Positions 3 through 25,602 of a stretch of 36,414 bases of DNA are shown here, piece after piece. The notes under the pieces were generated by a model. That model was not told where the DNA came from and did not search any database. It saw nothing but the letters and a program-made list of their open reading frames with translations. The first letter of the stretch is position 1, and each line of letters opens with the position of its first letter. The stretch is from the sequence record SRR22947725_396; one strand, given 5' to 3'. The translations under genes and the position numbers were made by a program.

Positions 3-965
3 ATCTATTACATTTATACTTTTTGTTCTACCTTTTTGTCTTGTTCCAATATTTACTACTGGGATTTTGTATGTTGCAGCCTCATGAATTCCAGAACTTG
101 AATTTCCAATAAGCCCTCTTGAATTTTTTAAAAGAGTTTTGTACTCCCTTAAAGATAGAGTTTGACAATGATTAAATTTATATTTTTTTATCAAATTAAT
201 GATTTTAAGTGACCCAGCATCATTATTTGGGAAAACAAATAATTTTTGTATTTTAATTTTATTTAAAGCTTCAATAGTTTCAATAAATTGTTTTTGTACA
301 TTTTTTAATTCTGAAGTTACCGGGTGTTGAATAATTAAGATATAATCTTGAAAAAGATCAATTTTAAATTTTTTTTTAATTAGATTATGATCTTCCTCTT
401 TTTCTTGTTTTAACGCATCTATTGATGGGCACCCCACTACAAATATATTTTCTTTTAACTCTCCCATCCTAATTAATCTTTTTTTAGTTTCCTCAGTTGC
501 TGTAAAATGAAAATTAGAAAATTTTGACATAGCATGCCTTAACGATTCATCAATAGTTCCAGACACCTCTCCTCCTTGGATGTGAGCAACTGGAATATTC
601 ATATGAGCACCACAAACTGCTATCGCAAAATTTGCAGCAATATCAAAGCCTGATAAAATCAAATTTGGTCTAGATTTTGCAATAATTTTAGGCAAATTTA
701 AAAATGCTTTGCCTAGTGCCTCAGACATTGATGATCCATCATTTTTTATATAATAATTTTTGTCGAACATTTTAAATTCATCAAAAATATTAAAATTTTC
801 TTCCAAAATTTCTTTTTTTGTATATCCAAAATTTCGATTAAGATGAATTCCAGTGACAATTAAATCATAACTTAAAAGTCTTGATTTTTGAATTAATTTT
901 ATAATTGGTTTAAATCTGCTAAAATCTGCTCTTCTTTCAGTAACTATAAGAATTTTTTTTTTCAT
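3..965 (-). CDS. neuC: UDP-N-acetylglucosamine 2-epimerase (hydrolysing), NeuC family; 3' end runs off the window
   Basis: Not in the ORF track. Manual translation from the ATG at 965 gives MKKKILIVTERRADFSRFKP...VTGIHL...AHIQGGEVSGTIDESLRHAMSK...GNSSSGIHEA...VNIGTRQ. It lies directly downstream of neuB. Confidence 0.93.
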   Translation of the reverse strand, partial: MKKKILIVTERRADFSRFKPIIKLIQKSRLLSYDLIVTGIHLNRNFGYTKKEILEENFNIFDEFKMFDKNYYIKNDGSSMSEALGKAFLNLPKIIAKSRPNLILSGFDIAANFAIAVCGAHMNIPVAHIQGGEVSGTIDESLRHAMSKFSNFHFTATEETKKRLIRMGELKENIFVVGCPSIDALKQEKEEDHNLIKKKFKIDLFQDYILIIQHPVTSELKNVQKQFIETIEALNKIKIQKLFVFPNNDAGSLKIINLIKKYKFNHCQTLSLREYKTLLKNSRGLIGNSSSGIHEAATYKIPVVNIGTRQKGRTKSINVID

Positions 966-973
966 AAACAATT

Positions 974-2023
974 TTAGTGAATATCTTTTTTCTTAATCAA
1001 AGTATTGCATTTTATAAAGTTTTTTGCTTTTTTACCTAAAATTTTATAGTACGATTTTGCATCAAAATCTCCAATGCCAGGTCTTTTTGGAAAAATATTT
1101 TTTTTTGTAATTCTATCTCCTTTTTTGATATCTTTTGTTGAAACTAGTGATGCGAATGCAAAATTTATTGTCGATTTTTCCTCTTTTACTGGACCTTTGT
1201 AGTTTCCTTTAGCTAAATGTATCTCATTTGTAGCAGCTAACAAAGACCTCAATTCATTACCATCCATTGAAGCAGAAATATCTGGACCAGCTCTGCTTTT
1301 TTTATCTACAAAATGTTTTTCAACAATAGATGCTCCTAAAGCAATAGCTCCTACACATGGATAAATTGTTCTAGAATGATCTGATAATCCTAATATTGCA
1401 TTTGGAAAAGACTCTTTTAATTTTAAAATTGCCTGTAATCTAATTAATTTTGTTGGAGTTGGATAAATGTTAGTACAATGCATTAAAGCGAATGGGATTT
1501 TATATTTTTCAAAAATTTTTACTGATGGTTTAATACTTTTTATTGTATTCATTCCGGTACTTAAAATTACTGGTTTTTTAAAGCTAGCAATATATTCAAT
1601 TAAAGGATAATTGTTGCATTCTCCAGAACCTATTTTAAATGCTGGGACATTAAATTTAACAAGTCTATCAACTGCTGCTCTAGAAAATGGTGTGCTTATA
1701 AATATCATCTTCTTACTTTTAACATATTTCATTAATTTAAATTCATCATGCTCAGAAAGTGATGATTTTTTAATAATATCAAAAATGTTTTCTTTTGTGT
1801 GTGAAGGTATAATTTTTTTGGCCTCAACTGACATCTCGTCATCGACAATATGTGTTTGATGTTTAATAATTTCAGCGCCAAATTTATGCGCTTGATCAAC
1901 AAGTTTTATTGCATTTTTTAAATTACCACCATGATTAATACCCAGTTCAACAATTATAAGTGGTTTATGATTTGGTCCTATCTTTCTTTTATCTATTTTC
2001 ATTAATAATTTATTTTTTTTCAT
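974..2023 (-). CDS. neuB: N-acetylneuraminate synthase (SiaC/NeuB1-like) with C-terminal SAF/antifreeze-like domain
   Basis: Motifs ELGINHGG, KHQTH, STPFS, KIGSGE, HCTNIYP, SDH, EKHF and KRPG. Adjacent to neuC. Confidence 0.96.
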   Translation of the reverse strand: MKKNKLLMKIDKRKIGPNHKPLIIVELGINHGGNLKNAIKLVDQAHKFGAEIIKHQTHIVDDEMSVEAKKIIPSHTKENIFDIIKKSSLSEHDEFKLMKYVKSKKMIFISTPFSRAAVDRLVKFNVPAFKIGSGECNNYPLIEYIASFKKPVILSTGMNTIKSIKPSVKIFEKYKIPFALMHCTNIYPTPTKLIRLQAILKLKESFPNAILGLSDHSRTIYPCVGAIALGASIVEKHFVDKKSRAGPDISASMDGNELRSLLAATNEIHLAKGNYKGPVKEEKSTINFAFASLVSTKDIKKGDRITKKNIFPKRPGIGDFDAKSYYKILGKKAKNFIKCNTLIKKKDIH

Positions 2024-3809
2024 TTTTCTTTAGATTTTCAATAAATGACAAAAGCTCGATATTTTTATTAATATCAGCAACCTTAGTATAACTATATAAT
2101 TTTTTTTGGTCAAAAATGATTAAATAATCAAATTTTTCTATTAACTCAAGTTTATGTAAAGATATGATAATCGTTTTATCTTTATAAGCTTGGAAGATAT
2201 TATTTATAATCTCTAATTCTAATTTTTTATCTAACGAACTTGTTGGCTCATCCATTAATAGAATTTCAAAATTCTTATATAAAGATCTTGCTATACAAAT
2301 TCTTTGCATTTGACCACCTGATAAACGGAAACCTTCTTCGCCAATAAATGTATTTTCTTTTTGGGGTAGCTTAAGTATAAATTCATCACAACAACTTAAT
2401 TTTATTGCATTCTTAAGACATTTAGAATTAACTTTATCTACGTCAATGCCTAGAGCTATATTTTCAATTAAAGTTCCATTAATTAATTCATTTTCTTGAG
2501 GCATATAAGATACTAAATTTTGCCATGCTCTTTTTTTATTAAATGTATCCATTCCATCACTTATAATTGTATTTTTGAAAGGCTCATATAATTGAGAAAC
2601 ATGATTTAAAAAAGTAGTTTTTCCACTGCCAGATGTGCCAATCAAAGCAATTTTAGAGCCTTTTGCAATATCTAAATTTATATTTTTTAAAATATCTTTA
2701 TTTAAAAGATTACTATTGAGATTTTTAATATTAATTTTATTATCAAATTTAATTTGACTATTTTTTTCTAAGTTATTGGCTTCAATAAAATCATCTTTGT
2801 CTATTTTTTTTGGATTACTTAAAACTTGATTAACAGTCTTAACTGATCCATATCTAAATTGAAGCTTATTGGCTTCACTCAAAACTGTATTAAACAATGG
2901 TAGCATTCGAATTACTGCAACAGATACTACAGATAAATAGGCAAATAATTCATCTGTATTACTACCTGACTCTAAATTTAAATAAATTAGCAGACACAAT
3001 AAAAGTACTGCAAATGTCTCAAAAAATAGTTTAGTGGACGAAAAAACAATGTTAGAAAAAAAATCAATTCTTTCAGTACTTTTTAAATTTTTAGAAAATA
3101 AATTAAAAAAGTAATATTCTAAATTGTTTAATGTAATATCTTTTATAAGAGTAAAAATATCAGTAATATTTTTTAAATAAAGACCTCTGCCTTTTACAGA
3201 CTGCTCTCCATAATATTTTAATTTTTTTTTCAAAATATAAAATAAAATAACACTTAATAATGCAAATGTTGCAAATACCAACAAAAACTCTAAGTTAGAA
3301 ATATAAAATACAAAAACTAAAAAAATTAATATCATTATCGAGTCATTTGCAATTTTGATTAAACTTGTAAGAGCTGCTGAAAAATGAACAACTTCTATTG
3401 AAATGTTACGAATTATTAAAGATAAATTGTTCTTAATTATATCAAGATAACTTAATGTTAAATAGTGGTTTAGTATATCCAAACGAAATTTTACATTTAT
3501 TTTATAATTAAAGTTTTGCTCATAAATATTAATAATAAAAAAAAATAAATTTTTAAGTAAAAAAACTAAAACTACTATTACTAATACATCTGTTAAATTT
3601 AAACTGATAACAATTTCAGAAAAAAAATCTAAATTATTTTGATCGAAAAAATTAACTATTTTATTTGGATTAAGTAAATATAAAATTAAAAATGGTATAG
3701 AGCTAATACTAACAAGTTCTGCTAATCCTTTAACAAACATAAACAAGACCAAAAATAGAAGATGAATTTTTAGTCTGAATGTCAACAAATTTATAATTTG
3801 CTTAATCAT
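2010..3809 (-). CDS. ABC transporter with fused permease and ATPase (MsbA/PglK-like), putative glycan flippase
   Basis: Hydrophobic N-terminal half; Walker A GTSGSGKT, Q-loop YMPQ, signature LSGGQ, Walker B ILLMDE, H-loop SLH. Confidence 0.9.
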   Translation of the reverse strand: MIKQIINLLTFRLKIHLLFLVLFMFVKGLAELVSISSIPFLILYLLNPNKIVNFFDQNNLDFFSEIVISLNLTDVLVIVVLVFLLKNLFFFIINIYEQNFNYKINVKFRLDILNHYLTLSYLDIIKNNLSLIIRNISIEVVHFSAALTSLIKIANDSIMILIFLVFVFYISNLEFLLVFATFALLSVILFYILKKKLKYYGEQSVKGRGLYLKNITDIFTLIKDITLNNLEYYFFNLFSKNLKSTERIDFFSNIVFSSTKLFFETFAVLLLCLLIYLNLESGSNTDELFAYLSVVSVAVIRMLPLFNTVLSEANKLQFRYGSVKTVNQVLSNPKKIDKDDFIEANNLEKNSQIKFDNKINIKNLNSNLLNKDILKNINLDIAKGSKIALIGTSGSGKTTFLNHVSQLYEPFKNTIISDGMDTFNKKRAWQNLVSYMPQENELINGTLIENIALGIDVDKVNSKCLKNAIKLSCCDEFILKLPQKENTFIGEEGFRLSGGQMQRICIARSLYKNFEILLMDEPTSSLDKKLELEIINNIFQAYKDKTIIISLHKLELIEKFDYLIIFDQKKLYSYTKVADINKNIELLSFIENLKKNEKK

Positions 3810-3835
3810 ATTATTTTTTTGGTAATCCAGTTAAA

Positions 3836-3858
3836 AATTGTATAAACTTTATAAAATT
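3836..3858. promoter_or_regulatory. Imperfect 23-bp palindrome in the divergent promoter region
   Basis: AATTGTATAAA-C-TTTATAAAATT has 11-bp arms with one mismatch and a TATAAA hexamer on each strand. It sits in the 64-bp gap between divergent starts at 3809 and 3874. Confidence 0.35.
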
Positions 3859-3873
3859 ATAGTCAAAAAAAAT

Positions 3874-4737
3874 ATGAATAATGTAGTTGTTATTGGTGGA
3901 TCGGGTTTTCTTGGAACAGAAGTTGCTAAAGAATTACTTGATAGAGGCCATAAAGTAAGAATATTTGATAAAAATGAACCTAAAATTTTTCACAAAAATT
4001 TAAAATTTATTAAAGGCAATATTTTAGATAATAAAAAACTTGAAAGTTCTATAAAAAATAGTTCTCATGTTTATAACTTTGCTGGTATAGCGGATTTAGA
4101 TTATGGGATTTCACAACCAATTAAAAGTATAGAGCAAAATATTTTAGCAACAGTAAATATGTTAAACTTTTGTAAAAAATACAAAGTCAAAAGATATATA
4201 TATGCCTCAACAATTTATGTTTACAGTGATAAAGGTGGTTTTTACAGATGTAGCAAACAAGCTGCAGAAAATTACATAGAAGAATTTTTTAAAAAGTTTA
4301 AACTTAATTACACAATTTTAAGATATGGTTCCTTATATGGTCCAGGGGCTGGAAATAACAATGGATTATCAAGAATTATTTCAAATTCAATTAAGAAGAA
4401 AAAAATAATTTATGAAGGTGGGCCAAACACTATACGGGAGTATATACATGTTTATGATGCAGCAAAATCAAGTGTAGATGTGTTAAATAAAAAATTTGCT
4501 AATAAAAGTATAATTCTTAAAGGTGAATATCCAATTCATATGAAAGATCTTTTAAAAACTATTTCTGAAATTCTTGGATTTAAAAAAATATTATTTAAAA
4601 AAGTTAAAAATGAAAATCATTACGAACAGACTCCATACAGCTATATACCAAAACTTGGGATAAAATATAAGCCTGATACATATGTAGATTTTGGTCAAGG
4701 AATTTTACAGCTTATTGATTCATTAAAAAAAAACTAA
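3874..4737 (+). CDS. NAD-dependent nucleotide-sugar epimerase/dehydratase (extended SDR)
   Basis: GGSGFLG, YASTIYVY, YRCSK (YxxxK), RYGSLYGP and REYIHV. Start moved from the TTG at 3838 to the ATG at 3874, just before the Rossmann strand. Confidence 0.9.
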   Translation: MNNVVVIGGSGFLGTEVAKELLDRGHKVRIFDKNEPKIFHKNLKFIKGNILDNKKLESSIKNSSHVYNFAGIADLDYGISQPIKSIEQNILATVNMLNFCKKYKVKRYIYASTIYVYSDKGGFYRCSKQAAENYIEEFFKKFKLNYTILRYGSLYGPGAGNNNGLSRIISNSIKKKKIIYEGGPNTIREYIHVYDAAKSSVDVLNKKFANKSIILKGEYPIHMKDLLKTISEILGFKKILFKKVKNENHYEQTPYSYIPKLGIKYKPDTYVDFGQGILQLIDSLKKN

Positions 4738-4741
4738 TTTT

Positions 4742-5671
4742 ATGAAAGTTCTTATATCAAGTTATCACATGAACTTAGTTTTAAAAAAATACATAAAAGT
4801 TCTGAAACAAAACAAAATCAAAATTGATAAGATAATCAGAAATCCTTCTGTTAAAGAAAATGAGTTAATAAAGATTATACACAAATATGATGGAGTTATT
4901 TGCAGTGATGATGAATTTTCAAAAAAAGTACTTATAAAAGCTAAAAAATTAAAAGTTATTTCAAAATGGGGAACTGGAATAGACTCAATCGATTCTAGTT
5001 TTGCAAAAAAAAAAGGTATAAAAGTATTCAATACGCCAGGAGCTTTCACCAGTGGTGTTGCTCAATATGCGCTGGGAATGATATTGAACCTATCAAGAAA
5101 ACTTTTACAGAGTGATAAATCATTAAAAAAAGGATATTGGGAAAAATTTCAAGGAATAAATCTTGATAATAAGAAAATAGGTGTAATCGGCTTAGGAAAA
5201 ATAGGTTCACAAATTATAAAATATTTAAGAAGTTTCGATGTAGTAATTTTTGGAAATGATACAAATAAAACTAAAAATAGATTATTTAAACAAAGAGGCA
5301 TTAAAATTCTAAGCTTAAATAAAATTTTTAACTATTGCGATATAATCGTAGTCTGTGTTGACTTAAATAAATCGTCTCATCATTTAATTGGTTTAAAACA
5401 AATGATGCAACTTGATGAAAACAAAATATTAATTAATATTTCAAGAGGACCTGTCGTTGATAATAAATCTTTATTAAAGGCAATTAATAAAAAGAACTTT
5501 CAAATAGGATTTGACGTTTTTGAAGAAGAGCCAATAACTAAAAAAGCTCTGGGCATATTAAAGAAAAAAAATTCAATTTTATCTAGTCATAATGCATTTA
5601 ATACTCAGGAAGATGTAAATTTTGTTCACAATAATACAGTAAAAAATCTCTTAAAAGGATTGAAAAATTGA
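4742..5671 (+). CDS. D-isomer-specific 2-hydroxyacid dehydrogenase (phosphoglycerate dehydrogenase-like)
   Basis: KWGTGIDSID and GLGKIG; the catalytic R-E-H triad is in NISRG, DVFEEEP and SHNA. Confidence 0.9.
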   Translation: MKVLISSYHMNLVLKKYIKVLKQNKIKIDKIIRNPSVKENELIKIIHKYDGVICSDDEFSKKVLIKAKKLKVISKWGTGIDSIDSSFAKKKGIKVFNTPGAFTSGVAQYALGMILNLSRKLLQSDKSLKKGYWEKFQGINLDNKKIGVIGLGKIGSQIIKYLRSFDVVIFGNDTNKTKNRLFKQRGIKILSLNKIFNYCDIIVVCVDLNKSSHHLIGLKQMMQLDENKILINISRGPVVDNKSLLKAINKKNFQIGFDVFEEEPITKKALGILKKKNSILSSHNAFNTQEDVNFVHNNTVKNLLKGLKN

Positions 5672-6627
5672 AATTAAACAAAAAATTTTATCTAAATTTT
5701 TCATCGATTCCTGAACTTGCAAAAAAAGCAAGGAATAAAAAAGAAAATTATAAAAACGCAGAATTAAATAAACTAATTAAATTATCTTCATCAAAAAATT
5801 TTATTGGTGTTGAATTTCCTTACTTTAGATTTTTTGCAAATTCAAAATCAATAAATTATTTAAAAAATTATTTAGATTATAATAATCAAAGTTACATCAT
5901 AGATTGTGAAAAAAAAATTTCGAAAAAGGAATTAAAAAAATTAATTCTAATATCAAATCAAATAGGAGCTAAATTTATTAGAATAAAATGTAGTAATATT
6001 TTATCTTGTGAAAGATATAGATATAAAAAGAAATGGAGTGTAAAAATTCAATCAATTGTTAAAAAGATTAAACAAATTAAACCCTTATTAAAAAAATATA
6101 AAATTAAATTAGCTATTGAAAATCATCAAGATTTAGACTCTTGTGATTTAATTGATATTATAAATATAGTAGGAAAAAATTATGTTGGTATAAACTTTGA
6201 TGTTGGAAATGCATTTGCAACTTGTGAAATACCTATAGAATTTTTAAAAAAAACTAGAAAGTATATTATAAACATACATTTAAAAGACTATATTATACTA
6301 CCAACAAATAAAGGATATGCATTACACAAATGTCCAATAATGGATGGAGATAGCCAAATAAATAAAATTTTAAATTTAATGAAAAAATATAGATTAAAAG
6401 CTCCAGTGAGTATGGAATTAGGTGCAAAAACTCCACGTGAAATAAAAGTAAGATCAAAAAAATTTTTTCAAAATTTTATAAAAGAAAGAGATAATAAACT
6501 TAAGAATACTAATTATATAATGGAAACTGCAAATAATAATTTTAAGAATATTGATAAATTAAAAAAACTAATTTCTTTAAATGAAATAAATATGTTAAAT
6601 AAAAGTCTTAAAAATTTAAATCAATAA
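5668..6627 (+). CDS. Sugar phosphate isomerase/epimerase, xylose-isomerase-like (AP_endonuc_2) TIM barrel
   Basis: Metal-ligand pattern AIENH, NFDVGN, IHLKD, SMELG. The TTG start overlaps the upstream TGA. Confidence 0.8.
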   Translation: MKLNKKFYLNFSSIPELAKKARNKKENYKNAELNKLIKLSSSKNFIGVEFPYFRFFANSKSINYLKNYLDYNNQSYIIDCEKKISKKELKKLILISNQIGAKFIRIKCSNILSCERYRYKKKWSVKIQSIVKKIKQIKPLLKKYKIKLAIENHQDLDSCDLIDIINIVGKNYVGINFDVGNAFATCEIPIEFLKKTRKYIINIHLKDYIILPTNKGYALHKCPIMDGDSQINKILNLMKKYRLKAPVSMELGAKTPREIKVRSKKFFQNFIKERDNKLKNTNYIMETANNNFKNIDKLKKLISLNEINMLNKSLKNLNQ

Positions 6628-6631
6628 AAAT

Positions 6632-7684
6632 ATGAAGGCATTAGTTCGATACTCACATTTACCAAAGAAACTTAAGATAAAAGAAATTCCATTTCCAAAT
6701 ATTGGAAATTCAAGTGAACAAGCCATAATAGAAGTAAAATTTGCTGGTATTTGTGGCAGAGACTTGGAGCACTATAAAACAAAAATTTCAAAAAAAAAAA
6801 TACCCACAGTTTTAGGTCATGAATTTTCAGGGGTGGTTAAAAAAATAAATAAAAATAATTTTAATGTGAAAATTGGAGATAGAGTAACATGTGAAACTGT
6901 TAAAAGTGTCTGTAAAAAATGTACTTTATGTAAAAGTGGTTTCTATAATTTATGTAAAAAAAGAAAAAATATTGGCGGAAGTACATCTGGAGCCTTTGCA
7001 TCACATATAAAGGTTCCCATTGAATATATTCATAAACTGCCTAATAGTGTTTCTTTAGACGAAGCAGCTCTTATAGAGCCTTTAGCAGTGTGTTATAATG
7101 CATTAATATTGAATTCTAATATCAAAAAAAATTCGACAGTTCTAATTTTTGGTGCTGGAACAATCGGACTATTATCATTAAAATTAGCAAAGTATAAAAA
7201 AGCAAGAATATTTTTAGTGTGTACACCTGAAGATAAAATGCAAAAAGAAATTGCTAAAAAAAATAAAGTTTCAAAAATATATTTGAGTAATGTTGATTAT
7301 GTAAAAAAAATTCTCAAAGATACAAATCAACAGGGAGTGGATTTAGTTGTGGATACAGTTGGAGGTGTAGACAAAACATTTGAAGATGCAATAAGTTTAA
7401 CAAAACCTGGTGGTCAAATTACTAAAATTGGATGGTTTATGAAAAAGGATGTAAATGCAAATTTTGACAATATCGTTAGAAAAAACTTAAAAATCCAAGG
7501 TAGTTTTAGTCATAATTTTAAAATATGGGAAGAATGCATTGAACTTTTATCAAAAAAAAACATTTATATTAAAGATTTGATTTCAAAAAAATGTGAAATT
7601 TCAGATTGGAAAAGTGCATTTAATTTGCTAACAGACAGAAAAGCTGTAAAAATATTAATGTCTTCAAATGAAAAATTATCTTAA
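6632..7684 (+). CDS. Zinc-dependent alcohol/polyol dehydrogenase (MDR family)
   Basis: GICGRD, GHEFSG, structural Zn site CKKCTLC...C, IEPLA and GAGTIG. Confidence 0.93.
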   Translation: MKALVRYSHLPKKLKIKEIPFPNIGNSSEQAIIEVKFAGICGRDLEHYKTKISKKKIPTVLGHEFSGVVKKINKNNFNVKIGDRVTCETVKSVCKKCTLCKSGFYNLCKKRKNIGGSTSGAFASHIKVPIEYIHKLPNSVSLDEAALIEPLAVCYNALILNSNIKKNSTVLIFGAGTIGLLSLKLAKYKKARIFLVCTPEDKMQKEIAKKNKVSKIYLSNVDYVKKILKDTNQQGVDLVVDTVGGVDKTFEDAISLTKPGGQITKIGWFMKKDVNANFDNIVRKNLKIQGSFSHNFKIWEECIELLSKKNIYIKDLISKKCEISDWKSAFNLLTDRKAVKILMSSNEKLS

Positions 7685-8414
7685 TTTTAAAAATAAGGTT
7701 TCGGTTGTAACTGGAGCTGGTTCTGGAATTGGTAGAGAGGTTTCTATTAAACTTTCAGATTTAGGCTCAACAGTAATTTTGGTTGGTCGAAGTAAAAAAG
7801 TATTAGAGTTAGAAAAAAAGATAAGAAAAAAAAATGTTACTGGGTATTTATGTGACTTATCTAATGAAGACTCCGTAAAAGATCTTTATACAAAAATTAT
7901 CAAAAAATATAAGAAAGTTGATATATTAATAAATTCAGCGGGTGTAACAGCATCAGGAAATATTAATAATACTTCATCAAAAGATTGGCAAATGATAAAT
8001 GATAATAATGGTTTAAATACTTTTTTGTGTTGTAAATATTTTTCAAAAAGTATGAAGAAAAGTAAAAAAGGTAAAATAGTTAATGTTTCATCTATAGCTG
8101 GAAGATTTAGAGGTAGAACTTCTGGATTACATTACGCTTATGCAAAATCAGGACTACTTGGATTTACGCGACAACTTGGAGCAGAACTTGCAAAATGGAA
8201 TATCAATGTAAATTGCTTTTGCCCATCTCAAACAATGACCGATATGTTAAGGAGTTTAATTACACCAGCAATAAAAAAAGAGCTTGAAAAAACAATTCCA
8301 ATTAGAAGAATTGCTACACCACAAGAGCAAGCTGAAGTAATACTTTTTCTAGTTTCTGAAATGTCTAATTATGTTGCTGGTGCATCAATTGACTCCAATG
8401 GGGGTCAATTTTAA
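7668..8414 (+). CDS. Classical short-chain dehydrogenase/reductase (FabG-like)
   Basis: TGAGSGIG, NSAG, NVSS, YAYAK and a C-terminal DSNGG. Confidence 0.93.
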   Translation: MKNYLNFKNKVSVVTGAGSGIGREVSIKLSDLGSTVILVGRSKKVLELEKKIRKKNVTGYLCDLSNEDSVKDLYTKIIKKYKKVDILINSAGVTASGNINNTSSKDWQMINDNNGLNTFLCCKYFSKSMKKSKKGKIVNVSSIAGRFRGRTSGLHYAYAKSGLLGFTRQLGAELAKWNINVNCFCPSQTMTDMLRSLITPAIKKELEKTIPIRRIATPQEQAEVILFLVSEMSNYVAGASIDSNGGQF

Positions 8415-9164
8415 ATGAAGATTAATGCATTTATACCTGTGAGAATGAGCTCATCAAGGTTCCCTGGGAAACCTTTAACAAAACTTTTAAATTTAACAAT
8501 GTTAGAGCATGTGTGGAGACGTACTAAAATGTCAGCAGTTGACGAAACATATGTGGCTCTATGTGATAAAGAAACTATCGATATATGTAAAAAAATAGGT
8601 GCAAAATATATTGTAACCAGCAAAAAACATGAGATGTGTATGGATAGAATAGCCGAAGCAGCAAATAAGAAAAAATCTGATATTATAGTTACCGTCCAAG
8701 GAGATGAACCTTTGATAAAACCTGAAATGATAAACCTAACTATAAAAAATATTATAAATAAAAAAGATAATTTGTTTTGTACTACTTTAGCTCAAAAAAT
8801 TTCTTCAAAAAGTGAAATTAATAATACGAATAGAGTAAAAATTATTTGGAACAAAAAAAAAGAAGTAATATATATTTCTAGAGAAGCAATTCCATCAGTT
8901 TCAAAATTTAAAAATAAAATTGATTATTACAAAATGGTATGTGTCTACACTATGACGCGAAAAAATTTAAATAAATTTCAAAAATTTGGGATATCGAGAA
9001 ATGAAAAAATAGAGTCTATCGATATGTTAAGAATACTAGATAATGGACTAAAACTTGGAATAGATACTATAGATGGTGAAGTAGAGAATATAGATGTAAA
9101 ATCAGATATTCCAAAAGTGATAAAAATTTTAAAAAAAGATCAGCTAATAAAACAATATTTATAG
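8415..9164 (+). CDS. kdsB: KdsB-like (CMP-Kdo synthetase family) cytidylyltransferase, variant subfamily
   Basis: IPVRMSSSRFPGKPL, QGDEP, YISREAIP and IDVKSD. The sugar-contact motifs diverge (KMVCVY, ESIDMLR). Confidence 0.85.
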   Translation: MKINAFIPVRMSSSRFPGKPLTKLLNLTMLEHVWRRTKMSAVDETYVALCDKETIDICKKIGAKYIVTSKKHEMCMDRIAEAANKKKSDIIVTVQGDEPLIKPEMINLTIKNIINKKDNLFCTTLAQKISSKSEINNTNRVKIIWNKKKEVIYISREAIPSVSKFKNKIDYYKMVCVYTMTRKNLNKFQKFGISRNEKIESIDMLRILDNGLKLGIDTIDGEVENIDVKSDIPKVIKILKKDQLIKQYL

Positions 9165-9179
9165 ATTTTAGATTAAATA

Positions 9180-10928
9180 ATGAATCTGCATATTTTTGAT
9201 GATAGTTTGAATCAGAAATATAATGAAAATAAAATTCTTATTTGGAATGGTGAAAAGATAAATAGAGTATTAGAGAATAACAAAAAAATTATTAGAACAA
9301 AATATTTAAATATAATTCACAATATTATTGAAAGTTACTCACTTAATTACAAATATTTTAGAATAAGAGATTTAAACTTATTTAAGATGAGTTTAATTAA
9401 TGAAAAAAACCCATTTAAATCTTCAGCTATTTTTGAATGTTTAAAATTATTAGCTCTAGAAATAATTATCAAAAAAAAAAAAATCAATAAGATTATCTAT
9501 CATGGAAAAATAGATAACTTACATAAATCTCTTAAAGATTTTTGTATTAATCAAAATATCAATTATGAAAGAGAAAAAATTACCTTAACAAATTCTAATT
9601 TTAAGCTAATTTTTTTTTTAACAGGAATTTTTTTTTTTTTAAAACAGCTGTATAAAAATTTTAATCTTGAAAAAAAATCAAAAAAAAATTTTGATGCAAG
9701 TATTATCTCATATTTTGTTCATTTTGATCGCCATCAAAAAAAAAAATTCCAATCTAATTTATGGGGTGATCTTATAAAATATTTAAATACCAAAAAAATA
9801 AGTATAAATTGGTTCCACTTTTATATTCCATCAGGTCAAGTTAAAAAAAGTTATTTAGCTAATTCTATGATCAAAAATTTTAATTTGAACAAATACGAAA
9901 ATCATAATTTTGTTAATTCAGTTTTAAATTTAGGAGATTTGCTAAATTGTTTTCTAATTTACTTTATTTTATTTGTTAGGAATATTTTTTTTTTGAAAAA
10001 TAATTTAAATTTTTTTTTAAATAAATATTCTAAAACAAATTTTTATTATTTCTTAGAAAAAGATTTAATGTCTTCATTTTTTGGATCAACGCTGATTTAT
10101 AACATAATGCATATTGTAACATTTGATAATTTGTTAAAAAATATTCCAAAACAAAAATTTGGGATATACATAATTGAAAATCAAAGTTGGGAATATAGTT
10201 TCATCAAACTTTGGAAAAAATATAACCATGGAAAACTCTTTGCTTATTTTAATTCTTCAATAAGATTTTGGGATCTTAGATATCTTAAGAAAAAAAATGA
10301 ACTAAGGAATTCAAATGAAAATCCAGATGTCTTTTTAATAAATAGCAATATATTTAAATCTGAGATAAAAAAATTAGGCTACCCAATGAGTAAGGTTTTT
10401 GTTGTAGAAGCTTTACGATACAAAAATTTAAAACCTATAAAAAAAATAAAAAAGAATAAAAAAATATTAATAGTGGGAGATATATTGTTTAAAGAAAGTG
10501 ATATTTTACTAAAATTTGTGGGTAAGACAATTGACTCTTTGAAAAATTACAAATTTTATTTTAAGCCACATCCAACTATGACACTAAAATCAATAAACTT
10601 AATTAAACAAAAATATAAATATATCAAGGTTTTGAACTTAAACACCAATGAATTCAAAAAATTTGAATTTGTTATTTGTTCTAATGGTACGTCTGCAAAC
10701 TTAGATTGTTTAATACAAAAATTGAATTTTTGTTCAGTAAATATAAATAACACTCTTAATCTCTATCCTATAGGCAAGTATCAAAAATTATTTCAAGCAA
10801 AAGGACATACGGACCTAATTAATAGAATTAAATATCCAAAAAACATAAAATTTAATAGAATTTTTAATCAGGAAAAAAATTGTCGTAAATTTCTGTCTAA
10901 AATTAACGAAGTCGAAATATCTAAATAA
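9180..10928 (+). CDS. Surface carbohydrate biosynthesis protein (resembles TIGR04326/LIC13510 family), putative ulosonate transferase
   Basis: Motifs ENQSWE, IRFWDLRY, VEALRY, FKPHP and SNGTSA. It is the last gene of the kdsB-like cassette. The family assignment is from memory of these motifs. Confidence 0.6.
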   Translation: MNLHIFDDSLNQKYNENKILIWNGEKINRVLENNKKIIRTKYLNIIHNIIESYSLNYKYFRIRDLNLFKMSLINEKNPFKSSAIFECLKLLALEIIIKKKKINKIIYHGKIDNLHKSLKDFCINQNINYEREKITLTNSNFKLIFFLTGIFFFLKQLYKNFNLEKKSKKNFDASIISYFVHFDRHQKKKFQSNLWGDLIKYLNTKKISINWFHFYIPSGQVKKSYLANSMIKNFNLNKYENHNFVNSVLNLGDLLNCFLIYFILFVRNIFFLKNNLNFFLNKYSKTNFYYFLEKDLMSSFFGSTLIYNIMHIVTFDNLLKNIPKQKFGIYIIENQSWEYSFIKLWKKYNHGKLFAYFNSSIRFWDLRYLKKKNELRNSNENPDVFLINSNIFKSEIKKLGYPMSKVFVVEALRYKNLKPIKKIKKNKKILIVGDILFKESDILLKFVGKTIDSLKNYKFYFKPHPTMTLKSINLIKQKYKYIKVLNLNTNEFKKFEFVICSNGTSANLDCLIQKLNFCSVNINNTLNLYPIGKYQKLFQAKGHTDLINRIKYPKNIKFNRIFNQEKNCRKFLSKINEVEISK

Positions 10929-10933
10929 ATACC

Positions 10934-11956
10934 TTAATAACGTCTTAGTGACCACCCATTCAATTCGAACTCATCATTTTTTTTTTCAGTTTCTGTATTA
11001 GGGCTCAATAGTGGATAACCATATTTAGATAAATTTAAATTGAACATTACTTGAAGACGGTGGTTTGATTGACCAAAAAATTTATAAATAACATTTTCAA
11101 TCTCTTTAGAAATAAACAATTTTTTATTCTTTTTAAAAAATAATTTATCAAATAAATATTTGATATTTTCACCATTAATAAAAGGTAAATAATTTGAAAC
11201 ACGTTTTACATTATATCTTTTTCTGTATCTTTCGTATTTTAAAGAATATTTTCTAAATAAAATATTTTGTGAATCTGCACGTTGATTTTCTTTAAATTTT
11301 AAGATTCTATCAATTAATTGATTATCGATTGGTTCATTTATAAATTCACAAACTTCTTTGTAGTATTCTTTTGGATTATTATTTAATAGTTCGAAGGGAA
11401 TAACTTTTATATTATTTTTTCCAAATAATTTTATATAATGATTACAAATCTTATCATAACGAAGCCCATGCATCATGCCATTAAGTTGATTTTTTAAATG
11501 TAATTCAATTGTTTCTTCAAAATCTCTCTGACTTATAAATTCTGGAGATACAAATTGTGTATATATAGATGGAAGCATCGTTATTTGAGATCGAATAACA
11601 TATAGTATTTTAATATCTCCAAATAAATCTTTAATTCTATTAGCTATAAGCCCTGGATCTGCTGTCATCTTTCCGCCTATACATGGTGTTACTAAACTTT
11701 CATCAGAAATCAATACTGGATTATTTTTTGTATCAAGCATCTCAGAATTTTTTAAATTATTAAAAAGCTCTTTTACTCGCTGAGTATTATAAGATACAAG
11801 ATCTTGATATTTAATTCTTTCGAATAATTCCTCTATGTCTGATCCGGGCATATACGGATCGCCTAAAAATTTTCTATACTTTAAATTTTGAAACAAATGC
11901 TTTTGTAATGTTTTTGAACCTGTTTTATGATTACCAATGTGAATAACAATATCCAT
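10934..11956 (-). CDS. Sulfotransferase-family protein
   Basis: N-terminal IHIGNHKTGSKTLQ (5'-PSB-like loop), ISDESL, and VIRSQ...SIY (3'-PB-like R...S). Confidence 0.75.
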   Translation of the reverse strand: MDIVIHIGNHKTGSKTLQKHLFQNLKYRKFLGDPYMPGSDIEELFERIKYQDLVSYNTQRVKELFNNLKNSEMLDTKNNPVLISDESLVTPCIGGKMTADPGLIANRIKDLFGDIKILYVIRSQITMLPSIYTQFVSPEFISQRDFEETIELHLKNQLNGMMHGLRYDKICNHYIKLFGKNNIKVIPFELLNNNPKEYYKEVCEFINEPIDNQLIDRILKFKENQRADSQNILFRKYSLKYERYRKRYNVKRVSNYLPFINGENIKYLFDKLFFKKNKKLFISKEIENVIYKFFGQSNHRLQVMFNLNLSKYGYPLLSPNTETEKKNDEFELNGWSLRRY

Positions 11957-12053
11957 TTTATGAGAATTTATTTAATACTAGTTTTTTTAATTTAAATTAA
12001 ATTATTTTATGAATATCCTATATTATAATTAAGTATTTATATATACATAAAAC

Positions 12054-12082
12054 TTGGACTATTATATATTAATATTTATTCT
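12054..12082 (+). promoter_or_regulatory. Possible sigma70 promoter for the asnB-like gene
   Basis: TTGGAC-N17-TATTCT ends 32 nt upstream of the ATG at 12115. The signal is weak given the AT-rich background. Confidence 0.25.
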
Positions 12083-12114
12083 TTAAAAAACTTTTCTTTT
12101 TAAAATTATATAAA

Positions 12115-13824
12115 ATGTGTGGAATCTTTATTGTCAAAACTGAAAATAATGTAAATAAGTATATAAATAAATTTAAGTCATCTTTAAGCGATATATACTC
12201 AAGAGGTCCTGACAGAAAACAATTTATAAAAAAAAATAATTATTTGATTGGTTTTACAAGATTAAGTATAAATGATTTAGAAGAAGCCAATCAGCCTTAT
12301 GAAAGTGAGGATAAAAGGTTTACCTTGTTGTTTAATGGAGAAATTCTTAATTATAAGAGCTTAATAAATTATCTTTCTAGCAAACAAATATTTTTAAAAA
12401 GATATACTGAGACCGAGGTTATCCTTAAGTTATATATTTTACATAAAGAGAAGTTTTTAAATTATCTTAAGGGTTTTTTTTCAATAGTTATAATTGACCA
12501 CAAAATTGATAAAATTTTTGCTTGTGTAGATCAGTTTTCAATCAAACCACTATATTATTATCATAGTAAAGATTTAATGATTTTTTCTTCAAATCCTAGT
12601 CCGATATTGAATAATCAATTTATAAATAAGGACTATGATCATTTAGAATTAATAAATTATGTTAGCTTAGGTAGAGAGCTTAATAATAAAACTATTTTTA
12701 AAAAAATTAATAAGTTAAATGCTTCAACTTATACAATCTTTTATAAAAATAAAGTTAACATACATAAATATTGGGCACCGTTTAATAAATACAAAGAAAA
12801 TTATTTTTCAAAAAAAGATTGCATGAATATGCTTTCAAATAAATTTGATAATGTTGTTAATTTATGGAAAACTTCTGATGTTAAGCTTGCACATACTAGA
12901 AGTAGTGGAGTTGACTCGAATATTTTGAATTTATATTTTAAAAAAAATAATATTGAGACTAAAAATTTTTCAATAAAAGAGAATAAATCACAAATTTTAG
13001 ATAAGAATGAAATTAATATAAAGTTTGATAATATCAATTTAGAGAAAGAACTTGATAAATATTTAAAAAATAATTTAGATCCAATTTCAGTTGGTGTATC
13101 AAGTAATTTAACACTATTTAATTTATATAAAAATATAAGTAATAAGAAATTTAAAGTATGTTTTAATGGAGAAGGCGCAGATGAAATTTTTGGAGGATAT
13201 CATAGGTACTTAAAACATTTAGATTTAATTAACAAAGAAAATGGTGATGTTTACAAATCTTTTCTAAATCTGTATCAAAAAGAAATTAATCATACTAATT
13301 ATTCTCTAAATATAGATAATTTTAATGTTAAAGATCATCTACTTAATCAGATTAAAAAAATTAAATTAAACTCAAAATTAAATTTGAATAAGATATTAGA
13401 ATTTGATCAAATAACATGGATACCTACGCTGATGAAGAGCCACGATTCTATAGGAATGTTTTATTCATTAGAGGTCAGACCTCCTTTCTTAGATACAGAA
13501 CTAGTTAATACAGTTAACAGTATCCCTGCAAATTTAAAATTACATAAAAATAAACAAAAAATTATAGCTCATGACATTCTATCAAAAATATTTAGATTCA
13601 AGGTCGATAAAACTAAATTAGGGACGCCAACTTTTTTTTATTCAATAATAAATAAAAAAAGAAATAAAGATATTTTAAAAGAAAAAATTTTTTATGGTAA
13701 ATTATCAAAATATTTTAATCCTAAAAAAACATGGGAAATTTGCAATAGACAATCTAAAGAAAAAAGTGATCATATATTTTTATGGAGAATTTTTATTCTA
13801 TCTAAAATTTTAGAACAGGATTAA
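12115..13824 (+). CDS. asnB: Asparagine synthase (glutamine-hydrolysing)-like amidotransferase, probably glycan-amidating
   Basis: N-terminal MCGI (Ntn Cys), RGPD, RLSI, FNGEI, GEGADEIFGGY and EVRPPFLD. Confidence 0.92.
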   Translation: MCGIFIVKTENNVNKYINKFKSSLSDIYSRGPDRKQFIKKNNYLIGFTRLSINDLEEANQPYESEDKRFTLLFNGEILNYKSLINYLSSKQIFLKRYTETEVILKLYILHKEKFLNYLKGFFSIVIIDHKIDKIFACVDQFSIKPLYYYHSKDLMIFSSNPSPILNNQFINKDYDHLELINYVSLGRELNNKTIFKKINKLNASTYTIFYKNKVNIHKYWAPFNKYKENYFSKKDCMNMLSNKFDNVVNLWKTSDVKLAHTRSSGVDSNILNLYFKKNNIETKNFSIKENKSQILDKNEINIKFDNINLEKELDKYLKNNLDPISVGVSSNLTLFNLYKNISNKKFKVCFNGEGADEIFGGYHRYLKHLDLINKENGDVYKSFLNLYQKEINHTNYSLNIDNFNVKDHLLNQIKKIKLNSKLNLNKILEFDQITWIPTLMKSHDSIGMFYSLEVRPPFLDTELVNTVNSIPANLKLHKNKQKIIAHDILSKIFRFKVDKTKLGTPTFFYSIINKKRNKDILKEKIFYGKLSKYFNPKKTWEICNRQSKEKSDHIFLWRIFILSKILEQD

Positions 13825-13844: not shown

Positions 13845-14984
13845 TTAAATAATTTTTTTTAGTATTTGTTTAAAATTTTTATTTTTATTTAACACTATAA
13901 AATCTTTAATGTATTTATCATACATTTTTTTATTAATTTTAAGATATTCTGATTTGTCAAAATTAAAATCATCATAATTAATTTCTGAAACATTAATTTT
14001 TTTTTTTTCAAAATATTTTCTATAACTATTTATAGTTTCAAACATATCACTATTTTCTAATTGATTAGTTGTCAAAAATATTAAAGGTTTATAATTTAAA
14101 ACAGCATAATTTATTGATGCAGAATTATGTGCAATCACTGCTGTAGAATTAGCAACAAGTTCCGCAGTTTTACTTTTAGTAATTTTCCAATTTTTAGTTA
14201 AGATTGACTTTTTACTTAAGTTTCTTTTTGGATGAGAAGCAATAACTATATCAATATTTAATTTTTTTTTTAATGAAAGAAGAAAATTATTAATCTCTTT
14301 CTCAAAAGTATCATATTCATATTTATGATGAGTTAATTTAATATCATGCGAAAATTGATAATCCTGATCTAAATAAACAAAAAATTTTTTTTTTGAATTA
14401 ATTTTTTTATAATTTAAACTATTAATTATAAAGTCAAAGTGTGGAAAAAAAAGAATTTTAATATTATTTTTAAAAATTTCATATTTGCCTTTTTGACCAG
14501 TTATACAATAATAATCTGTATTTGGAAATTTGTAATACTTTTGTAAAAAAAAATTTTGATAAAATTTATATAAAAATCTAAGAGGACGTAAATAAATCCA
14601 AGGTATAACATCCCACTTAGTTAATAATGGATAATTAAATCTTAAACTTTTAATATTAAATTTTTTTATTAATTTTCTTATTTCATAAAAAAATTTAATA
14701 TTTTCTAAATACATAGGATTTTTAATATTTAAATCTGCTAGGATTGTAAGATCTATAAAAAGAGAAATCTGATTTAAATTCAGTATTTTAGCTAACTTTT
14801 TGATAAATAACTTTTTATTATTCTTCAATAAGAATTGATCGTAACTTAAATAAATAATATCAAAATCTGTATCGCAATCTTTTAAAAAGAACCACTTGTA
14901 ATCTTTTTTATTTTTAATTCTATATCTAGAAATAATTAATATTTTTTTTTTAAGACAAGATTGTTTTTTTTTGGAATTCTTCAC
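13845..14984 (-). CDS. Hypothetical protein, putative nonulosonate (sialyl-like) transferase
   Basis: C-terminal YLDQ, ASHPK and HNSAS pattern recalls the HP/S motifs of CMP-sugar GT-B transferases. It is the terminal gene of the Leg-type operon. The start is uncertain. Confidence 0.5.
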   Translation of the reverse strand: MKNSKKKQSCLKKKILIISRYRIKNKKDYKWFFLKDCDTDFDIIYLSYDQFLLKNNKKLFIKKLAKILNLNQISLFIDLTILADLNIKNPMYLENIKFFYEIRKLIKKFNIKSLRFNYPLLTKWDVIPWIYLRPLRFLYKFYQNFFLQKYYKFPNTDYYCITGQKGKYEIFKNNIKILFFPHFDFIINSLNYKKINSKKKFFVYLDQDYQFSHDIKLTHHKYEYDTFEKEINNFLLSLKKKLNIDIVIASHPKRNLSKKSILTKNWKITKSKTAELVANSTAVIAHNSASINYAVLNYKPLIFLTTNQLENSDMFETINSYRKYFEKKKINVSEINYDDFNFDKSEYLKINKKMYDKYIKDFIVLNKNKNFKQILKKII

Positions 14985-16119
14985 CTTTTTTTAGAACCTT
15001 TTCATTTTTCTTTATCCAAATTGACTCATTTCGCCACTTATTTGCTATTTTCCAAAAATCATCTTCACCTATTCCTGTAAAATCTAAGAATTCATTAAAA
15101 TACTTGATTGGAAACTCATTATCATATTTCTTAACTAGCGCTATAGCTTCCTCTCTGGTAATAAAACCTTCTCGTACTTCTCTAGCTGCATTTGAAGTGC
15201 ATCTACCATGGCCAAATTTTATTAGTGCAAACCAATGATGAAATGTATCTAGCTTATCATCTATTGATGAATATTTGGTATAAGTCCCCTCCGTTCTTAC
15301 AGTATTTGGTTTGAATCCAGTATTTTTTGAAGCATAATAAAAGTTGCTGTGATTAGACCAGTTTCTGAAGTACCCATAAAAAAATCTCTTAACATTTTTT
15401 TTTTTTACTTCCTCTATTTCTGGACCCTCAAATAAATTTAAGTCATTTCTTGAGTAACCCTTATCCATCCAATACTTTAAAGAATATTTTGAAAACCAAA
15501 TTTTTTCATACTCTTCAACATCTAGTCCTCTTTTATTCCAGCTATCAATATTTCCACCATATTCAGCTTCTGCATTTTCACCTGAAAAAACTAATTTAAT
15601 ATTAAATTTTGTTGCTATTTTAATAGGAAAAAGCACCTGGCCATAAATAAAAGGCTGGAAAGGATCTCCCATTTCAATCATTGCATCTTTACACAATCTT
15701 CTTACTGTTTGACCATTCGCCATTCCCAAAATAACATCAAATCCTGATTTATTAAAATTTACTAAATTTTCCCATCCAATGTCAGTATATTTCAAAGGTG
15801 ACCATGTTACAGTTAAAGGGTTCATTTTATATTTAGTTTTTAATTCATGGGCAACGAACGCACTATCTTTACCACCCGATGATGGCACAACACAGTCATA
15901 GCTTCCATCTTTGCTTCTATGGGCATCTAAAATTTCGATTAACTCTTTTTCTCTTTGTTCCCAATCAATTTTTCTTTTATATTCAAAATAATTACATGCA
16001 CTACATACACCATCTTTATCGAAGGTAATACGTGGCCTCTGGTTAGATATAACACATTGTTTGCAATATGTTATATCATCTGGCAAATTATATTTTTCTT
16101 TTATATTAATATTTTCCAT
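14950..16119 (-). CDS. N-acetyl sugar amidotransferase (WbuX/PseA/PtmG family)
   Basis: CKQC...CSAC, PP-loop SSGGKDS, GENAEAEYGG, KYSSIDD, KFGHGR and ITREEA. Confidence 0.92.
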   Translation of the reverse strand: MENINIKEKYNLPDDITYCKQCVISNQRPRITFDKDGVCSACNYFEYKRKIDWEQREKELIEILDAHRSKDGSYDCVVPSSGGKDSAFVAHELKTKYKMNPLTVTWSPLKYTDIGWENLVNFNKSGFDVILGMANGQTVRRLCKDAMIEMGDPFQPFIYGQVLFPIKIATKFNIKLVFSGENAEAEYGGNIDSWNKRGLDVEEYEKIWFSKYSLKYWMDKGYSRNDLNLFEGPEIEEVKKKNVKRFFYGYFRNWSNHSNFYYASKNTGFKPNTVRTEGTYTKYSSIDDKLDTFHHWFALIKFGHGRCTSNAAREVREGFITREEAIALVKKYDNEFPIKYFNEFLDFTGIGEDDFWKIANKWRNESIWIKKNEKVLKKGEEFQKKTILS

Positions 16120-17732: not shown

Positions 17733-17734
17733 GA

Positions 17735-18742: not shown

Positions 18743-18745
18743 AAA

Positions 18746-19375: not shown

Positions 19376-19378
19376 TTA

Positions 19379-21051: not shown

Positions 21052-21054
21052 TAT

Positions 21055-24411: not shown

Positions 24412-24422
24412 ATATTTAAGAT

Positions 24423-25601: not shown

Positions 25602-25602
25602 T

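Follow-up and report, generated by a model that had tools for sequence, protein, structure and literature searches.

To our knowledge, every textbook route to a ulosonic acid builds the carbon skeleton by condensation with phosphoenolpyruvate (PEP) or pyruvate. Here we describe a cassette of seven genes, g1-g7, on the DNA stretch SRR22947725_396 (36.4 kb, ~24% GC; the window, by which we mean the whole stretch that was analysed). Its gene content and conservation support a real, conserved and biosynthetic-looking unit around a variant of KdsB, the synthetase that links Kdo (3-deoxy-D-manno-octulosonate) to cytidine monophosphate (CMP). The cassette probably makes an acidic sugar of the cell surface without the enzyme that ordinarily joins the carbons.

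The cassette resembles several described systems in part and departs from each of them. As in KdsB/KpsU (E. coli K-CKS, 1GQ9, and L-CKS, 3K8D), its cytidylyltransferase g6 has the same fold and the catalytic motifs, and it presumably couples cytidine triphosphate (CTP) to the C2 hydroxyl of a keto acid to yield a CMP-sugar; unlike KdsB, it has His181, SGTDR and LEQLR replaced, and is invariably accompanied by four oxidoreductases and a triose-phosphate-isomerase (TIM) barrel protein. The predicted end point, a CMP-activated acidic sugar of a surface glycan, is that of the NeuC/NeuB/NeuA pathways for neuraminic, legionaminic and pseudaminic acids, and the cassette has operons of this kind as neighbours both in the SAR11 island and in locus L047, but it has no PEP-condensing synthase, carries a KdsB-type instead of a NeuA-type cytidylyltransferase, and persists in genomes without a NeuB match. 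YcjQ, YcjR (PDB 6wn6) and YcjS of E. coli form a catabolic guloside-glucoside relay without nucleotide activation. As there, the cassette has a Zn-dependent medium-chain dehydrogenase/reductase (Zn-MDR), a PF01261 TIM barrel and a second dehydrogenase side by side; in contrast to that relay, it is linked to nucleotide activation, and its TIM barrel g3 shares only 13% identity with YcjR and has its nearest structure in Art22. The cassette also combines the families of 2-ketogluconate reductase, L-idonate 5-dehydrogenase, gluconate 5-dehydrogenase and 6-phosphogluconolactonase, as ketoaldonate metabolism does, whereas the ketoaldonate pathways are catabolic and have neither cytidylyltransferase nor glycosyltransferase, and the cassette proteins score below the equivalog cut-offs except for the L004 lactonase.

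As for the product, Dengler and co-workers are said to have found, in 1988, 4-deoxy-2-hexulosonic acid in the E. coli K3 capsule. The compound is a hex-2-ulosonic acid, distinct from both Kdo and the nonulosonic acids, and represents the product type that we propose here; a link between the K3 capsule and the cassette is speculation. A 2026 paper on capsule typing gave no match in its main text for K3 or the 4-deoxy sugar. In an excerpt of a 2023 paper (PMC10433991), the K3 locus is described as still genetically undetermined, and in one part of the SugarBase preprint, ulosonic acids are stated to have been seen so far only in CMP-activated form. Our literature searches, which covered main texts without supplements, turned up no characterised pathway that combines these genes, in line with the first-pass annotation of the window.

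The cassette and its enzymes

Seven open reading frames (ORFs) on the plus strand span 3874-10928 with spacings of +4, -4, +4, -17, 0 and +15 nt, and the flanking genes, an ABC exporter and a sulfotransferase-like gene, lie on the minus strand. This is the tight coupling, opposite to the neighbours, that the first-pass annotation had reported, and Pfam and NCBIfam scans agree with the enzyme classes that it had assigned to g1-g6.

3874-4737, plus strand: g1, short extended short-chain dehydrogenase/reductase (SDR) of the NAD-dependent epimerase/dehydratase family, 287 aa (PF01370)
4742-5671, plus strand: g2, D-isomer 2-hydroxyacid dehydrogenase, like phosphoglycerate dehydrogenase (PGDH), without ACT domain (PF02826/PF00389)
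5668-6627, plus strand: g3, metal-dependent TIM barrel of the xylose-isomerase fold (PF01261)
6632-7684, plus strand: g4, Zn-dependent medium-chain dehydrogenase of the polyol/threonine dehydrogenase type (PF08240/PF00107/PF16912)
7668-8414, plus strand: g5, classical SDR, FabG-like ketoreductase/dehydrogenase (PF00106/PF13561)
8415-9164, plus strand: g6, KdsB-like CTP:sugar-acid cytidylyltransferase, catalytic motifs intact, sugar-domain signature altered (PF02348)
9180-10928, plus strand: g7, TIGR04326 protein, an N-terminal domain followed by a predicted GT-B fold (residues 169-582)

The g1 frame is open from a TTG at 3838, and the ATG at 3874 fits both the GxxGxxG N-terminus and the alignment starts of the homologues. 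The protein scores 127.8 bits on PF01370, its best sequence matches in the PDB are uridine diphosphate (UDP)-glucose 4-epimerases and nucleotide-sugar SDRs, and its sequence displays GGSGFLG, YRCSK and ASTIY in place of TDE, which we take to be the motif typical of 4,6-dehydratases. Outside SAR11, g1 usually lies 3' of g6, a position that fits an extended SDR working on a nucleotide-linked product; we propose g1 as a putative epimerase or ketoreductase of a nucleotide-linked sugar. The second protein, g2, matches PF02826 (144.9 bits) and PF00389, and reaches 200.8 bits on the PGDH model TIGR01327, below the cut-off of 454. Its nearest PDB relatives are archaeal short PGDHs (P. horikoshii, 155.8 bits), with a "probable 2-ketogluconate reductase" of the same family at 104.8 bits, and we propose that g2 may convert an aldonate, perhaps a phosphorylated one, to the 2-keto acid by oxidising its C2 hydroxyl.

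In g4, the Cys/His/Glu ligands of a Zn-MDR and the CxxCxxCx7C site are visible in the sequence; all its NCBIfam matches fall below cut-off (Tdh 184.9, IolM 173.8, galactitol-1-phosphate 5-dehydrogenase 149.4 and L-idonate 5-dehydrogenase 105.9 bits). The same is true of g5, with PF00106 at 163.8 and PF13561 at 165.3 bits, for which the NCBIfam matches are FabG-type models, the glucose 1-dehydrogenase subfamily (169 bits) and gluconate 5-dehydrogenase (152.5 bits).

The TIM barrel g3 scores 58.7 bits on PF01261 against a cut-off of 31.1 and carries Glu/Asp/His/Glu metal ligands. Among 20 homologues E151, D178 and E250 are invariant, while H204 is replaced by Asn in three. A structural model of g3 (mean predicted local distance difference test score, pLDDT, 92) superposes best on "isomerase Art22" (Z 26.4, root-mean-square deviation (rmsd) 2.4, 247 residues aligned), for which literature searches on Art22 and on aurantinin/xylose-isomerase returned only unrelated papers and no function. 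SCO6571, the 3-keto-D-glucoside 4-epimerase YcjR (23.1), D-tagatose 3-epimerase (22.7), xylose isomerases and 3-keto-glucal hydratase follow, tied at Z 22-23.5; the enzymes of this group of fold neighbours all act beside a sugar carbonyl. We propose g3 as a candidate keto-sugar epimerase, isomerase or dehydratase.

A distinct KdsB clade

The g6 protein scores 136.2 bits on PF02348, and its best NCBIfam matches are all KdsB models. It passes only the subfamily model PRK05450.1-5 (215.8 against 193), and stays below the cut-offs of PRK13368 (237.2 against 255) and of the equivalog TIGR00466 kdsB (128.8 against 155.2); the homologues from the candidate phyla radiation (CPR) and from L100 pass both of these. 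Its best solved relative is K-CKS 1GQ9 (110.9 bits), and all solved relatives at E <1e-17 are CMP-Kdo synthetases. On the PseF model TIGR03584 g6 reaches 19.5 bits, and the unit encodes neither the NeuB nor the NeuA-type enzyme of a NeuB-type pathway.

We aligned 14 cassette-linked sequences with two housekeeping KdsBs (genomes G001 and G005). The P-loop (PxRxxSxRxPGKPL), QGDEP and the second Asp ((I/V)D(V/T)), which bind CTP and Mg in KdsB (PMC3149649), are retained throughout the cassette clade. The changes concern other motifs: SGTDR becomes MCMDR, MAMDR or RA(S/T)DR, and LEQLR becomes IDMLR, in contrast to the housekeeping KdsBs of G001 and G005, where the canonical motifs are intact. The C-terminal domain of KdsB binds Kdo (PMC3149649), and His181, Q98 and Y185 are among the residues that PMC12199768 names in the Kdo site of the E. 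coli enzyme. At the position of His181, all 14 cassette-linked sequences have Met or Gln (Met in g6) and both housekeeping KdsBs have His; Q98 and Y185 are retained in g6. Compared with a strictly Kdo-specific KdsB, g6 therefore keeps the fold, the P-loop and the Asp pair, and departs from the Kdo-site residue set at H181. Cassette-linked copies are 39-94% identical to g6, housekeeping KdsBs 31-32%. By these sequence criteria g6 belongs to a distinct KdsB clade. PRK13368 was tried as a marker for this clade and rejected, since a canonical SAR11 KdsB (219.5 bits) and the cassette copy of G001 (231.3 bits) are not separated by it.

Conservation and distribution

The closest loci come from two Pelagibacteraceae genomes of single-cell or metagenome origin (L001, L002), which have the same seven genes at 60-94% amino acid identity together with the divergent ABC/NeuB/NeuC operon. 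In Patescibacteria (L003, L004) and unclassified bacteria (L005, L006), the order is g2-g3-g4-g5-g6-g1, at 33-62% identity. The arrangement goes beyond chance, since other phyla show these genes in the same order.

A set with one genome per species gave 22 loci with a relative of the TIM barrel, six of which carry the cassette, and a metagenome scan gave at least 409 TIM relatives, of which the best 80 were kept. With hidden Markov models (HMMs) built from our own seed sequences and a g3 score of at least 270, 42 loci including the window were classed as close-TIM loci; they come from Pelagibacteraceae, Patescibacteria, unclassified bacteria and metagenomes. Wherever the contig was long enough, g2 (36/36), g4 (35/35), g5 (32/32) and g6 (30/30) were present. 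The g1 gene was found in 28 of the 42 and was never missing from loci with two long flanks; in L027, 7 kb of upstream sequence contain no g1, and the downstream part is too short to judge. In contrast, 16 of the 26 loci that could be assessed have g7, namely those of SAR11 type and L049. Co-occurrence of the seven families, which the first-pass annotation had proposed to check, is universal in the assessable close-TIM loci for six of them, and not for g7.

The TIM family is small: of 1.84 billion representatives clustered at 50% identity, 116 clusters belong to it at E <= 1e-30, and 924 if the threshold is relaxed to E <= 1e-10. Among 301 genomes of the family of G001 and 401 genomes sampled from the phylum of G002, the cassette occurred once each, in G001 and G002 themselves. 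It is a rare, patchily distributed accessory module. A tblastn search of plasmids with the TIM homologue returned three weak, unrelated matches only.

In L003 and L005 the cassette is flanked by GT2/GT4 glycosyltransferases, a Wzx-type flippase and methyltransferases. FkbM-type methyltransferase genes lie in or beside cassettes outside SAR11 (L003 11915-12682, L005 6849-7727, L057 6694-7521), that of L003 between g4 and g5; these genes suggest that either the product or an intermediate is O-methylated. In L043, the gene immediately upstream of the cassette (483-1838) encodes a GT2 glycosyltransferase fused to a partial PF02348 domain.

Lactonase link and condensing enzymes

Outside SAR11, 11 of the 22 loci that could be assessed have a gene of the lactonase family PF01182 touching the cassette (L003, L004, L005, L006, L050, L051, L053, L054, L056, L057 and L060). 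The L004 homologue scores 209.3 bits on the 6-phosphogluconolactonase model TIGR01198 against a cut-off of 124.45, and the copies of L003, L005 and L057 reach 71-78 bits, below it. In G002-G005, no PF01182 match other than the cassette-linked homologue is strong, and no match to glucose-6-phosphate dehydrogenase was obtained in the five genomes searched. Given this negative and the linked lactonase homologue, the lactone would most simply be made by a cassette dehydrogenase.

Family scans found no KdsA, NeuB or HpcH gene inside g1-g7. The absence of a condensing enzyme claimed by the first-pass annotation therefore holds for the cassette itself; that annotation did not mention the NeuB/NeuC operon 1.8 kb upstream. 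In G002-G004, incomplete assemblies in which absence is unproven, no match was found to PF00793 (KdsA/DAHPS), PF03102 (NeuB), PF03328 (HpcH) or PF00701 (DHDPS/NanA-type), and the sole PF02348 match is the cassette gene; the three are independent genomes and give the same picture. A KdsA partner for the cassette KdsB is thus not seen in these metagenome-assembled genomes, while G001 (SAR11) and G005 have one KdsA-family match each, and a separate KdsB.

The first-pass annotation had offered two origins for the keto acid, remodelling of housekeeping Kdo or redox chemistry alone. The former is disfavoured: G002-G004 show neither a PF00793 nor a PF03102 match and no second PF02348 gene, G001 has its own canonical KdsB, and the cassette enzyme is altered. 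A putative redox route to a non-Kdo 2-ulosonic acid without aldolase is favoured by the same findings and above all by the cassette-linked lactonase homologue in genomes without a glucose-6-phosphate dehydrogenase match.

Aldolase-containing relatives

The first-pass annotation had also called for a comparison with aldolase-containing versions, and such relatives exist. In four distant loci (L063, L089, L095 and L100), a member of the cassette-type KdsB clade lies directly 3' of an HpcH/HpaI aldolase gene, which implies that the substrate class of this clade can be aldolase-made. These KdsB-like proteins are 39% identical to g6 and 45-48% to the L005 copy. They are followed by a 500-aa protein of unknown function, a glycerate-2-kinase-like MOFRL protein, a 2-hydroxyacid dehydrogenase, a TIM barrel (~31-33% identical to the g3 homologue of the CPR locus L005) and two SDRs, and a NeuB-domain protein is encoded upstream in L089, L095 and L100. 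The two adjoining genes of L100 are as follows.

4636-5397: L100 HpcH/HpaI aldolase (TIGR02311 173 bits, GarL 142 bits, both below cut-off)
5400-6173: L100 KdsB-like gene

The whole L100 cluster (787-13539) contains a 749-aa protein resembling a CBS-NeuB fusion and a GMC oxidoreductase ahead of the HpcH aldolase, and a nucleotidyltransferase after the SDRs. A cluster of this type may make a 2-keto-3-deoxy (di)acid sugar.

The g7 protein

The g7 protein matches TIGR04326 with 257 bits against a cut-off of 250 (residues 27-554), and has no Pfam match; a literature search on TIGR04326 yielded no papers. The KPHP motif, by which the first-pass annotation had recognised a transferase-like protein, occupies residues 462-465, with K462, H464 and P465 conserved and H464 invariant in 32 homologues. 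In CMP-sugar transferases of the sialyl and Kdo types, the conserved His-Pro of the HP motif contacts CMP.

In the model of g7 (pLDDT 90), residues 169-582 superpose on solved GT-B enzymes with Z 14.4 to 10 over 300-320 residues. The best match is UDP-GlcNAc 2-epimerase (Z 14.4, rmsd 3.7, 304 aligned), followed by NeuC (14.1), PglA (13.2), TarL (11.8), WaaA (11.8), polysialyltransferase (10.4) and a CMP-bound capsule polymerase (10.2); the CMP-linked enzymes among them (polysialyltransferase, capsule polymerase and WaaA) rank no higher than the UDP-sugar enzymes. The model establishes the predicted GT-B fold of g7, and we propose the protein as the candidate transferase of the cassette product, in SAR11-type loci and L049 only.

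CPR loci carry instead a conserved protein of 600-633 aa with a weak match to the C-terminal half of g7. Neither the CPR 582-aa membrane protein nor the 633-aa protein gave a BLASTP match to g7. The 633-aa family was considered as a g7 orthologue (hhalign 85.8%, E 5e-6 over the C-terminal 207 columns) and rejected, the His of the HP motif being not conserved. In L002 (single-cell genome AG-349-G19), the g7 homologue (9843-11566) is split into two overlapping frames, 9843-10301 and 10274-11566, by either a frameshift or a sequencing error.

The surrounding glycan island

A large glycan island makes up the rest of the window, with a second NeuB/NeuC pair, LegB/LegC, a PtmE-like nucleotidyltransferase gene, WbuX/HisH/HisF amidotransferase genes and heptose-type genes. 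Among the window ORFs scanned, g6 is the only PF02348 protein, and no NeuA/LegF-type cytidylyltransferase was seen in the window.

3-971, minus strand: NeuC, same divergent operon as the ABC exporter and NeuB
974-2023, minus strand: NeuB of the divergent operon upstream of the cassette
2010-3809, minus strand: ABC exporter
3810-3873: divergent intergenic region of 64 nt, presumed promoter, between the ABC-exporter/NeuB/NeuC operon (minus strand) and the cassette (plus strand)
10934-11956, minus strand: sulfotransferase-domain protein (PF00685, E 2e-8), convergent with g7
16797-17732, minus strand: D-2-hydroxyacid dehydrogenase paralogue
17735-18742, minus strand: second NeuB
22215-23417, minus strand: NeuC of the second cluster
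23341-24411, minus strand: CBS plus nucleotidyltransferase, PtmE-like
24423-25688, minus strand: LegC
25603-26610, minus strand: LegB (426.8 bits, just below cut-off)
28681-29829 and 30417-31505, minus strand: TIGR04441 (LA_1612 family, 203 bits) and TIGR04440 glycosyltransferase (122 bits)

A scan for promoters and terminators in this DNA of 24% GC found promoter-like sites fewer than in shuffles, and no terminator. The sulfotransferase-domain gene is separated from g7 by a 5-nt gap and is kept in L002 at 68.5% identity; its place beside g7 hints at a sulfated glycan. The second nonulosonic acid cluster, of legionaminic type, extends over 14950-26610 and also includes an aminotransferase, an ATP-grasp protein and the WbuX/HisH/HisF acetamidino genes. 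The dehydrogenase paralogue directly adjoins the second NeuB and scores 88 bits on the g2 HMM. The TIGR04441 and TIGR04440 genes belong to families originally defined from Leptospira O-antigen loci, here present beside TIGR04326 in a SAR11-type island. In G001, a NeuA-like PF02348 gene (C3:8224-8898, L105) lies downstream of NeuC, its match being interrupted by one TGA and one TAA.

The stretch occurs in DNA runs of estuary, marine and seawater metagenomes, and two metatranscriptome runs contain 0.09 and 0.06 of its sampled words.

Proposed route and alternatives

We consider it close to an even chance, if somewhat below it, that the cassette forms a self-contained module whose product is a CMP-activated acidic keto-sugar, distinct from Kdo and from the nonulosonic acids and bound for a surface glycan. 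In such a route, the SDR g5 or the Zn-MDR g4 would oxidise an aldose or aldose-phosphate at C1 to a lactone, which would open to the aldonate through the linked 6-phosphogluconolactonase homologue outside SAR11 and spontaneously in SAR11. Oxidation of the C2 hydroxyl by g2 would then yield a 2-keto-aldonate, and thereby a 2-ulosonic acid without recourse to an aldolase. The TIM barrel g3 may epimerise or dehydrate beside the carbonyl, with the remaining dehydrogenase resetting the keto group, so that stereochemistry or deoxygenation would be edited. Finally, g6 would join the C2 hemiketal hydroxyl to CMP, g1 would epimerise or reduce the CMP-sugar, and a lineage-specific GT-B protein (g7 in SAR11) would transfer the sugar to the glycan. 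A more specific version is tentative and, on balance, rather unlikely: a hexose or heptose phosphate would pass through lactone and aldonate to a 2-keto-aldonate, edited by the TIM barrel and ketoreductases and cytidylylated by a KdsB paralogue. This would be the first aldolase-independent route to a CMP-2-ulosonate, and would place an unrecognised hexulosonic-type acid, similar in kind to that of the E. coli K3 capsule, on the surfaces of some SAR11 cells and of those Patescibacteria in which no Kdo or sialic-acid synthase match was obtained.

Several observations weigh against the module as we read it. Since the enzyme matches lie below equivalog cut-offs, we infer the step order, as we do the substrates and the carbon number. 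The SAR11-type loci, the window included, contain no lactonase gene, and G001 has no PF01182 match; this is compatible with spontaneous opening of a lactone, yet it weakens the lactone inference for the window. The cassette encodes no phosphatase, though its Pgl-like and PGDH-like enzymes suggest phosphorylated intermediates. Many of the 42 close-TIM loci are close relatives, roughly six to eight distinct lineages by identity, and the counts overstate the independent support. G002-G004, in which condensing enzymes were sought, are Patescibacteria-type metagenome-assembled genomes of 0.6-0.9 Mb, so absence is unproven there. To these are added the KdsB clade members behind an HpcH aldolase in L063, L089, L095 and L100, and the NeuB/NeuC genes that the cassette adjoins in SAR11-type loci and L047.

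We regard it as unlikely that the dehydrogenase, TIM epimerase and second dehydrogenase invert stereocentres of Kdo or of a nonulosonic acid made by NeuB/NeuC, in the manner of YcjQRS, with g6 making the CMP-epimer. NeuB/NeuC do lie divergently upstream in the window and in all SAR11-type loci with enough sequence (L001, L002, L028, L029, L034, L035, L039), in L047, from another lineage, a NeuA-like gene is found with NeuB and NeuC downstream of the cassette in the same orientation, YcjR is among the fold neighbours of g3, and part of PMC12053666 describes enzyme pairs that epimerise pseudaminic acid. Against such remodelling, G002-G004 bear the cassette without a NeuB or KdsA-family match. 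The nonulosonic acid operons own a PF02348 gene (G001 C3:8224-8898; L047 15501-16187), and the lactonase homologue and the 2-hydroxyacid dehydrogenase are left unexplained. A 2-keto-3-deoxy sugar acid supplied to g6 by a pyruvate aldolase encoded elsewhere, or by central metabolism, is quite unlikely. The four loci with an HpcH aldolase just before the KdsB-like gene argue for it, as do the ESIDMLR clade signature and the loss of His181 shared by their KdsB-like proteins, whereas HpcH occurs in none of the 42 close-TIM loci, G002-G005 have no PF03328 or PF00701 match (PF01081 was not searched), and the TIM barrel of the aldolase versions is distant from that of the cassette, so that its chemistry may differ.

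The remaining alternatives concern the substrate of g6 itself. That it activates something other than a 2-ulosonic acid, for example a hydroxy acid or an acid derived from a cyclitol, the product being a non-glycosidic glycan substituent, appears very doubtful: the sugar-domain motifs do differ from canonical KdsB, and inositol-pathway models give weak matches below cut-off (g4 on IolM, 173.8 bits; g3 on IolE, 20.3 bits), but the closest solved relatives of g6 are without exception CMP-Kdo synthetases, and the catalytic Asp pair, which positions the C2 hydroxyl via Mg-A (PMC3149649), is retained. It is scarcely credible that g6 is a redundant CMP-Kdo synthetase among catabolic or unrelated dehydrogenases, as NCBIfam naming, which would call g6 KdsB by its PRK05450.1-5 score, might imply. 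The six-gene order is kept across phyla with overlaps or gaps of 0-17 nt and in the company of glycan genes, the cassette occurs in genomes without a KdsA-family match, and G001 and G005 have a separate canonical KdsB.

Implications

If the proposed non-Kdo module is real, its six enzymes would constitute a new entry point to CMP-sugar acids by redox chemistry only, and at ~5.3 kb the six genes are few enough for reconstitution in vitro. The automatic NCBIfam name "KdsB" on cassette homologues such as those of L005 and L100 would then be corrected, including in genomes without a KdsA-family match. Rare and located in a variable surface-glycan island of a Pelagibacteraceae-type genome, the cassette looks like a strain-level surface marker, and may possibly be relevant to recognition by phages and grazers.

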